DNA of 63,991 nucleotides, filler included, from Bonamia ostreae (taxonomy: Eukaryota), in NCBI GenBank assembly GCA_040357525.1. It is 33 parts of 33 records of this genome, joined end to end, with 100 filler letters (N's around TTAATTAATTAA, not from the genome) between each part and the next. Parts side by side here need not be neighbours in the genome. Positions count along the whole stretch, not along the records: positions 60,235 to 62,063 come from JBDODL010001289.1; 32 more parts are not named here. The stretch is one strand, 5' to 3'. Positions 61,001-61,159 of this stretch are shown here, piece after piece. Both the position numbers and the translations under genes were made by a program. The notes beneath the pieces were generated by a model. It was not told the origin of the DNA and ran no database searches. It saw only the letters and a program-made list of their open reading frames with translations. Position 1 is the stretch's first letter. Each line of letters starts with the position of its first letter.

Positions 61001-61159
61001 GGATCGGCGCAATGACGCACGACCCGCTTAAAAAAATTACGCTGTTGTGCGGGCAAAAAAGCCGGCACACGCCGTTTCACATCTGCCGAGGTGCCATGGC
61101 AGTGCTCTTCGACGACCCACGCTCTTCTTGATCGGCGGAGGGTCCAGCGATGTTTTGCA
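61001..61159 (-). ncRNA. U1: U1 spliceosomal snRNA with a variant 5' splice-site recognition arm
   Basis: In order on the minus strand: helix H CGCTG/CAGCG; SL1 GACCC/GGGTC with loop GATCAAGAAG; SL2 CTGCC/GGCAG with loop ATGGCACCTC; SL3 TGTGC/GCACA; Sm site AATTTTTTTA; SL4 GGGTCG/CGATCC; ~159 nt. Confidence 0.9.

Follow-up and report, generated by a model that had tools for sequence, protein, structure and literature searches.

The 5′ end of U1 small nuclear RNA (snRNA) is among the most conserved RNA sequences of eukaryotes and, in known U1 snRNAs, the loop of stem-loop 1 (SL1) binds U1-70K and that of stem-loop 2 (SL2) binds U1A. In the stretch of DNA analyzed here (hereafter the window: 63,991 bases, made up of 33 scaffolds of 1.83-1.86 kb from the Bonamia ostreae assembly GCA_040357525.1, separated by spacers of the form N44-TTAATTAATTAA-N44), a U1 snRNA gene lies on the scaffold at 60235-62063 and reads CAAAAC where U1 normally reads ACUUAC. 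This gene probably encodes a working U1 that is co-adapted with the 5′ splice sites (donors) of the same organism, most of which start with GUUU.

U1 snRNAs whose arm has co-evolved with the donors form a very small class, for which the sole earlier reports concern Entamoeba and a small number of relatives (Roy and Bowser, bioRxiv 10.1101/2022.06.08.495308, 2022). In five species of Entamoeba, 88-90% of donors read GUUUGU and the one U1 carries the arm ACAAAC, the U1 of Mastigamoeba balamuthi reads ACGUAC, and Physarum polycephalum holds an ACAUAC variant beside standard copies, while the standard arm is retained by yeasts, Giardia, Trichomonas, Thecamonas, and Micromonas (10.1101/2022.06.08.495308). 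The same principle having been reported for Entamoeba, Mastigamoeba, and Physarum, the preliminary description of this locus, which was aware of no precedent, is not borne out on that point; the co-evolution of arm and donors is already known, and the present locus is most likely a second, independent case. In the diplonemid Sulcionema specki, an alternative U1, the 5′ end of which is rich in C, has been proposed to serve atypical donors (PMC12621601). Among parasites with very short introns, mikrocytids have introns of 16-17 nucleotides (nt) and a much reduced spliceosome, and Rfam annotation gave U2, U4, and U6 and no U1 (PMC10245619), while a comparative ascetosporean paper names "canonical introns" and does not use the word snRNA in its main text (PMC11069148). 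In a full-text literature search, covering main texts, neither a U1 with a CAAAAC arm nor GUUU donors of a parasite with tiny introns were found to have been described.

The U1 described here shares with that of Entamoeba an A-A instead of U-U facing donor positions +3 and +4, donors with U at both positions, and an otherwise conventional body (four stem-loops, the 70K loop, a loop resembling that for U1A, and the Sm site). However, the arms differ (ACAAAC in Entamoeba and CAAAAC here, with +5 and +6 faced by C and A there and by A and C here), and the donors of Entamoeba are near-invariant GUUUGU, whereas those found here are GUUU followed by variable bases (G at +5 in 3/17). The search in the Entamoeba preprint scored the pairing region equally for any base; a default Rfam scan finds nothing here. 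Mastigamoeba and Physarum likewise show a compensatory change of the U1 arm that matches an atypical donor base at +4, but with one arm position changed, compared with two or three here. In Sulcionema specki the 5′ end of the U1 is also replaced, but by a C-stretch in a gene that sits beside a canonical copy, both being comparably complementary to the donor logo. Mikrocytids resemble the present case in having parasite genomes with very short, uniform introns in which Rfam-based annotation gives no U1, as does the default scan here, although their introns measure 16-17 nt versus mostly 19-24 nt here. Compared with the canonical U1 of Rfam family RF00003, the secondary structure, the SL1 loop, the Sm site, and a length of ~160 nt are shared and the 5′ arm differs. 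The introns found here are also far shorter than those of Entamoeba, and a protist-type scaffold (see below) encodes the delta subunit of an F-type ATP synthase, extended at its N terminus. To our knowledge, Entamoeba has no F-type ATP synthase. Thus, the organism is not Entamoeba, because of this subunit, the far shorter introns, and the lack of an invariant G at +5.

The U1 snRNA Gene and Its Fold

A covariance search with RF00003 returned a match at 61000-61155 on the (-) strand that covers the entire model (1-166) with 47.4 bits (E = 9.4e-9 over the whole window and 5.9e-11 in a 401-nt search) and that is the sole match with E ≤ 1 among 4227 Rfam families in a permissive scan of the 64-kb window. 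The U1 snRNA gene at 61000-61159 (-) is real, far beyond what chance would give, and its body has the parts that would make up a conventional U1, namely helix H, SL1 with a loop of the U1-70K type, SL2, SL3, the Sm site, and SL4. A complete U1 at 61001-61159, as first proposed, is borne out by the full-length match and by the fold; the family search, made over the window, agreed in its E-value and fell short in its score, and a default Rfam scan of the window is empty because 47.4 bits lie below the curated gathering score of 69.5. No match to U2, U4, U5, or U6 was obtained in the permissive scan of the 64-kb window at E ≤ 1, and U1 proteins were likewise not found in the window. The parts of the gene are the following:

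61000..61159 (-): U1 snRNA gene, with position 1 taken as 61159 and the 3′ end at ~61000 (RF00003 and fold)
61149..61159 (-): single-stranded 5′ arm UGCAAAACAUC (sequence, unpaired in the centroid fold, donor complementarity)
61157-61152 (-): pairing core CAAAAC, in which C61152 would face intron G+1
61145..61148 (-): helix H, 5′ strand GCUG (cmscan structure line and fold), with C61149 as a possible fifth pair
61041..61044 (-): helix H, 3′ strand CAGC (cmscan structure line and fold)
61124..61133 (-): SL1 loop GAUCAAGAAG (matches the Rfam consensus line)
61088..61097 (-): SL2 loop AUGGCACCUC, consensus AUUGCACUUC (cmscan and fold)
61027..61038 (-): Sm site AAUUUUUUUAAG, unpaired between helix H and SL4
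61001..61025 (-): SL4, terminal hairpin of 25 nt (cmscan and fold), also scored as a terminator-like hairpin
61178..61187 (-): TATA-like box TATATAAATA, 19-28 nt upstream of 61159, read from the sequence

Unconstrained energy folding of 61159-60995 gave a centroid structure in which the first 10 nucleotides are free, helix H (5 bp) encloses three stem-loops, and the unpaired Sm site is followed by a terminal hairpin. The four-way junction, in which helix H closes SL1, SL2, and SL3, is recovered by this fold and agrees with the cmscan structure line, and both give helix H as the GCUG/CAGC pairing that had been described. The minimum free energy is -61.9 kcal/mol (z = -2.2), 7 of 200 shuffled sequences being equally stable, and the U1 region has 57% GC versus 34% for its contig. 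The SL1 loop is identical to the Rfam consensus line, and the SL2 loop agrees with it at six of seven positions (AUGGCAC versus AUUGCAC). The TATA-like box could be an snRNA promoter element, and the U1 RNA, if made, would start near 61159.

The 5′ Arm and Its Register

The arm reads UGCAAAACAUC in place of the canonical ACUUACCU. The U1 positions that normally face +3 and +4 are A-A here versus U-U in the standard arm, the next position is also A, and CAAAAC is the Watson-Crick complement of GUUUUG. The preliminary description had fixed C61152 as position 8, which is what anchoring on helix H gives; anchoring on the SL1 loop, in a MAFFT alignment with 81 environmental U1 sequences, makes it position 9, and this shift of one column arises because SL1 is 1 nt shorter here. 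The complementarity of CAAAAC to the donors is independent of the numbering of positions. The register proposed by Infernal, which places AAACAU on positions 1-6 and deletes positions 7-10, was rejected, since it leaves no C-A to face GU. By analogy with the Entamoeba case, the departing arm is treated here as a putative variable specificity element and not as a ground to exclude the gene from the U1 family.

Donor Sites

The donor survey comprises 17 introns, found on 9 of the 22 scaffolds that make up the protist-type composition class, to which the U1 scaffold belongs. Four of them, all on the U1 scaffold (60572, 61297, 62051, and, on the minus strand, 61258), come from contigs of run X4, a run whose RNA nature is a guess and which is termed RNA-like for three forms that skip a GT..AG segment and have no counterpart in X1 and X2, two runs from different studies; the contigs of X1, X2, and X4 were compared with the U1 scaffold only. 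The other 13 were placed by homology, from frame breaks or in-frame stops, on 8 other scaffolds, and for several of these the family pattern was judged not by alignment but by motifs that we take to be conserved. Contigs with MCM, Arp-like, Nramp-like, PQ-loop, and WD similarity were left out of the count, their homology being too weak for setting boundaries. The introns, with three exonic and six intronic donor bases, are as follows:

60572..60622 (+): 51-nt intron of the U1 contig, AAC|GUUUAA; the joint of X4 record 17 "skips 51, GT..AG", X1 and X2 unspliced
61297..61316 (+): 20-nt intron of the NOC3-like gene, CAC|GUUUCC; X4 record 22 is without 20 letters at 61297-61319
62051..62063 (+): further NOC3 donor, ACA|GUUUUU; acceptor beyond the contig end
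61174..61258 (-): 85 nt skipped in X4, CCC|GUUUAA; GT..AG on the U1 strand only, CT..AC on the NOC3 strand
31507..31785 (+): 279-nt SMU1 intron, AAG|GUUUCC; aligned to human SMU1 (PDB 5o9z_L), boundaries approximate
32093..32116 (+): 24-nt SMU1 intron, CAU|GUUUGU; in frame without a stop, equal to an 8-residue insertion versus human SMU1
32260..32282 (+): 23-nt SMU1 intron, AAU|GUUUUC; removal mends a frameshift
39535..39556 (+): 22-nt DnaJ intron, CAG|GUAAAA, the sole exception; J-domain frame, motif HPDKN..GNP..A
41132..41151 (+): 20-nt RPA70 intron, GGA|GUUUUA; homology-placed
41353..41372 (+): 20-nt RPA70 intron, GCU|GUUUGA; homology-placed
41685..41988 (+): 304-nt RPA70 intron, GGG|GUUUUA; C-terminal homology as presumed by us
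50138..50159 (+): 22-nt RIO1 intron, AAU|GUUAUU; homology-placed
51971..51994 (-): 24-nt Rictor intron, AUC|GUUUUA; in-frame stop inside
57599..57618 (+): 20-nt PRP19 intron, CAA|GUUAGA; homology-placed
57762..57780 (+): 19-nt PRP19 intron, ACA|GUUUUU; homology-placed
3290..3311 (-): 22-nt condensin subunit 2 intron, CUC|GUUUUC; homology-placed
12856..12927 (-): 72-nt DHH/DHHA2 phosphoesterase intron, GCG|GUUAAA; in-frame stop inside

The 16 known lengths are 19, 20, 20, 20, 20, 22, 22, 22, 23, 24, 24, 51, 72, 85, 279, and 304 nt. Two junctions of X4 record 22 involve some interpretation: we infer that the gap at 61297-61319 is a clean 20-nt GT..AG intron plus a synonymous change, T61319C, which restores the NOC3p frame, and that the departure of this record from the genome after 62050 (107 unlike letters, X1 and X2 staying collinear) is a splice.

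Thirteen of the 17 introns start with GTTT, including all four X4 junctions, three with GTTA, and one with GTAAAA; none starts with GTAAG or GTGAG, as the preliminary description had noted, and the donors that it named at 32091, 32258, and 50136 are real and preceded by exonic AU. By position, the donors (n = 17) have the following composition:

-1: C 5, G 4, U 4, A 4
+1: G 17/17
+2: U 17/17
+3: U 16, A 1
+4: U 13, A 4
+5: U 8, A 4, G 3, C 2
+6: A 9, C 4, U 4, G 0
+7: C 2/17

As a background, the 9 scaffolds contain 1455 GT sites, of which a fraction of 0.48 is followed by T and 0.24 by TT, and the excess of the first 16 introns over this background gives P(≥15/16) = 1.6e-4 for +3 and P(≥12/16 TT) = 2.4e-5 for +3/+4. 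The donors of this organism are biased towards GUUU. An unsupervised scan for 18-30-nt GT..AG segments joining open frames was uninformative, with 64 matches versus 29-80 for control signal pairs.

Predicted Pairing of Arm and Donors

In the proposed mechanism, the single-stranded CAAAAC arm would select 5′ splice sites by base pairing, forming the pairs G+1:C, U+2:A, U+3:A, and U+4:A, to which U+5:A would often be added; with the canonical arm, pairing would be limited to GU. Duplexes were counted with G-U pairs allowed, the contiguous stretch including +1/+2 and the totals running over the 11 positions from -3 to +8. Across the 17 donors the mean contiguous duplex is 4.5 bp for the variant arm versus 2.6 bp for the canonical arm, and the mean total is 6.3 versus 4.6 pairs, the fit stemming from the A residues facing +3, +4, and, in half of the donors, +5. 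The DnaJ donor GUAAAA pairs poorly with the variant arm (2 bp contiguous), and the organism still splices such a donor. The match first claimed between arm and donors holds for the A-A facing +3 (U in 16/17) and +4 (U in 13/17), but its extent had been drawn too wide: a full code of 10 nt, AU|GUUUUGCA, is not supported by +6 (G in 0/17), +7 (C in 2/17), -1 (U in 4/17), and +5 (U in 8/17). Since pairing is confined to +1 to +4 or +5, this ten-nucleotide code is really one of four to five nucleotides.

Linkage of the U1 Gene to the Tiny-Intron Organism

Record 8 of X1 and record 16 of X2 each span 60971-62058, so that the U1 and a NOC3-like gene lie on one contig in both:

61231..62050 (+): NOC3-like gene, divergent neighbor of U1; Pfam PF07540 NOC3p, E 1.9e-10; X4 contig depth 401

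The preliminary assignment of the U1 to the organism with these donors is supported: the gene is one of the tiny-intron organism, as opposed to the animal-like contigs, because it shares a contig with NOC3 in X1 and X2, because the 20-nt and 51-nt GTTT introns spliced in X4 lie on that contig, and because its composition is of the protist type. The contigs of X1 and X2 list no difference within 61000-61162, and the flank at 60747-60948 is polymorphic, far more so than the NOC3 coding region.

Further features lie on both sides of the gene. Directly downstream of the U1 3′ end, a joint at 60951-60997 that "goes back 47" occurs in X1, X2, and X4 and looks like a 47-nt tandem-duplication polymorphism, and the sequence of 60958-60970 recurs, with a single difference, in a loose end that follows 61004. 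At 60313-61004 (+), a spliced, transcript-like X4 contig, with the 51-nt intron removed and no long open reading frame (ORF), runs convergently with U1 and ends at the U1 3′ end. On the upstream side, X4 record 22, otherwise NOC3 mRNA, begins with ten letters equal to 61164-61173, which are unique in the window and are joined to 61259. The TATA-like box and the NOC3 start codon (ATG at 61231) both fall within the skipped segment, 61174-61258, which would have its acceptor 14 nt before U1 position 1. On one reading, splicing of a transcript from the minus strand leads into the 5′ flank of U1, and an assembly that ignored strand fused this transcript to the mRNA; on another, this is a non-canonical plus-strand junction. 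On a bolder reading of a minus-strand junction 14 nt upstream, the U1 might be cut from a spliced precursor instead of being started at its own cap site.

Two Composition Classes in the Window

Tri- and dinucleotide composition divides the 33 scaffolds into a CpG-rich class of 22 (CpG observed/expected (o/e) 1.19-1.95, TpA o/e 0.28-0.81) and a CpG-poor class of 11 (CpG o/e 0.32-0.94, TpA o/e 0.74-0.89), which suggests two organisms in a single assembly; any whole-window statistic therefore mixes both. The CpG-rich class includes the scaffolds with U1, SMU1, RPA70, PRP19, RIO1, Rictor, and condensin subunit 2, as well as those with the ATP synthase delta subunit, a collagen-like ORF, and an astacin. 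Only the CpG-poor contigs, such as one that carries a tyrosine-kinase exon with no more kinase-coding sequence in the 570 nt upstream, are host-like or animal-like. A comparison with a protein atlas gave clusters labeled just "Eukaryota", so that Ascetosporea, the group named in the preliminary description, is a tentative placement. The organism that carries the U1 would be pictured as an AT-rich, CpG-rich eukaryote with introns mostly of 19-24 nt, the contigs of which are mixed with animal-like ones. A Pfam scan covered 30 of 104 ORFs (≥90 aa) and assigned a family to 18.

A collagen triple-helix repeat ORF at 25386-26111 (-) and an astacin metalloprotease ORF at 45472-46020 (+) lie on scaffolds of the CpG-rich, protist-type class, and assigning these two scaffolds to the host was ruled out by that composition. 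An RVT_1 reverse-transcriptase ORF of 591 aa at 29340-31112 (-), on a scaffold of the same class with 21% GC, marks a retroelement that stems either from the tiny-intron organism or from a third source.

U1 Arms in Environmental Sequences

A pattern blind to the arm (SL1 loop, SL2 loop, and Sm site) gave at least 125 matches in 120 metagenome loci. Among the 125 matches listed, 84 have ACTTACC, 9 have ACTTAC without the next C, and 32 have neither, 11 of these being cut by a contig end; the CAAAAC arm occurs in none of the matches listed from this search. When 14 environmental loci were tested against Rfam, 10 held U1s above the gathering score. Three contigs carry a standard-arm U1 together with one whose arm is ACAUACC, the complement of GUAUGU, all above the gathering score (L011:8812-8971/10191-10348, L039:7593-7753/6944-7100, and L064:2-164/956-1121), and further ACAUACC-arm U1s occur on L061, L108, and L112. 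These variants being real U1s, the arm can vary in nature, and variant and standard copies can coexist. Another metagenome contig (L120:925-9257) clusters a ribosomal DNA unit followed by U5, two U1 genes, one of them with the arm AAACUUACUUGG, and U2.

Weighing the Interpretations

Several observations count against a working U1 co-adapted with the donors. U1 RNA is seen in no read or contig, the X4 contigs leaving 61028-61163 uncovered and so speaking neither for nor against its expression; the match of 47.4 bits is under the gathering score, and the arm register relative to the U1 body is known only to within 1 nt. The donors sampled are few (17, on 9 of 22 protist-like contigs), 13 of them were placed by homology with boundaries that assume GT..AG, and the donor bias is partly compositional, since T already follows GT at a frequency of 0.48. 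Complementarity ends at +4/+5, with none at +6 to +8 or in the exon, +4 is A in 4/17 donors, and GUAAAA opens one of the introns. Finally, the search for U1 covered the 64-kb window only, so a canonical U1 may lie elsewhere in the genome, and standard and variant U1s coexist on the environmental contigs L011, L039, and L064 and likewise in Physarum (10.1101/2022.06.08.495308). The linkage to GUUU introns on the same contig, the intact fold, the donor bias, the longer duplexes with the variant arm, and the precedent of such U-to-A changes in Entamoeba stand on the other side, and it seems probable that the RNA is made, that it works as a U1, and that arm and donors have changed together. The stronger claim, that this is the sole U1 and that its CAAAAC arm emerged jointly with the GUUU(U) donors, separately from the case of Entamoeba, in a parasite-like lineage whose introns measure 19-24 nt, has roughly even chances.

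The main alternative, that the gene is a real but minor variant copy, with a canonical ACUUAC U1 doing most of the work and the variant serving some introns or none, is unlikely. Such an arrangement has counterparts in the environmental contigs that hold both kinds of U1, in Physarum (10.1101/2022.06.08.495308), and in the diplonemid with a canonical and an alternative copy (PMC12621601), and it would agree with the one intron in 17 that starts with GUAAAA and with a U1 search limited to the window. Nevertheless, the canonical arm could not pair with the U found at +3 in 16/17 donors, its mean contiguous duplex being 2.6 bp, and no second U1-like match with E ≤ 1 occurs in the 64-kb window, itself a small sample of the genome.

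A second alternative, that this is the sole working U1 and that its match to the donors was not selected for pairing, AT- or T-rich drift having shaped both arm and donors, appears quite improbable. In this scenario, the 5′ site of 20-nt introns would perhaps be set mainly by U6 and U5, by proteins, or by intron length. The pairing of four to five weak pairs only, the lack of complementarity at +5 to +8 and in the exon, and the common T after GT (0.48) would all fit drift, and yeasts, Giardia, and Trichomonas keep a canonical U1 despite non-complementary donors (10.1101/2022.06.08.495308). However, A and T are equally frequent in the contigs, yet +3 is U in 16 donors and A in 1, with A opposite in the U1; moreover, two or three adjacent arm positions have become exactly the complementary base, and Entamoeba reached the same solution (10.1101/2022.06.08.495308).

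That the locus is no functional protist gene, but instead a pseudogene, a relic of a host U1, or a match by chance, is very improbable, for, although the score is under the gathering threshold, the match is full-length (E = 9.4e-9) with all loops and the Sm site intact, the gene is identical in X1 and X2 next to a polymorphic flank, it is linked to genes with RNA-supported 20-nt GUUU introns, it has a protist-type composition, and a TATA-like box stands at -19 to -28.

Implications

The stronger claim, of a sole U1 whose arm and donors arose together, would, if true, represent a convergent second origin of a code in which U at +3 and +4 is read by A-A. An independent second lineage would provide a natural replicate for asking whether splice signals and spliceosome co-evolve or introns are filtered, and it would help to gauge to what extent an intron of 20 nt depends on pairing with U1. 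Genomes of this kind will be mis-annotated by gene finders whose training relied on GURAGU and on introns of normal length. Moreover, the default Rfam threshold misses this U1, and reports of "U1 not found" in related reduced parasites may be a search artifact; if this is the sole U1 of the organism, that would account for the failure of standard annotation to detect a U1 in genomes of this type.

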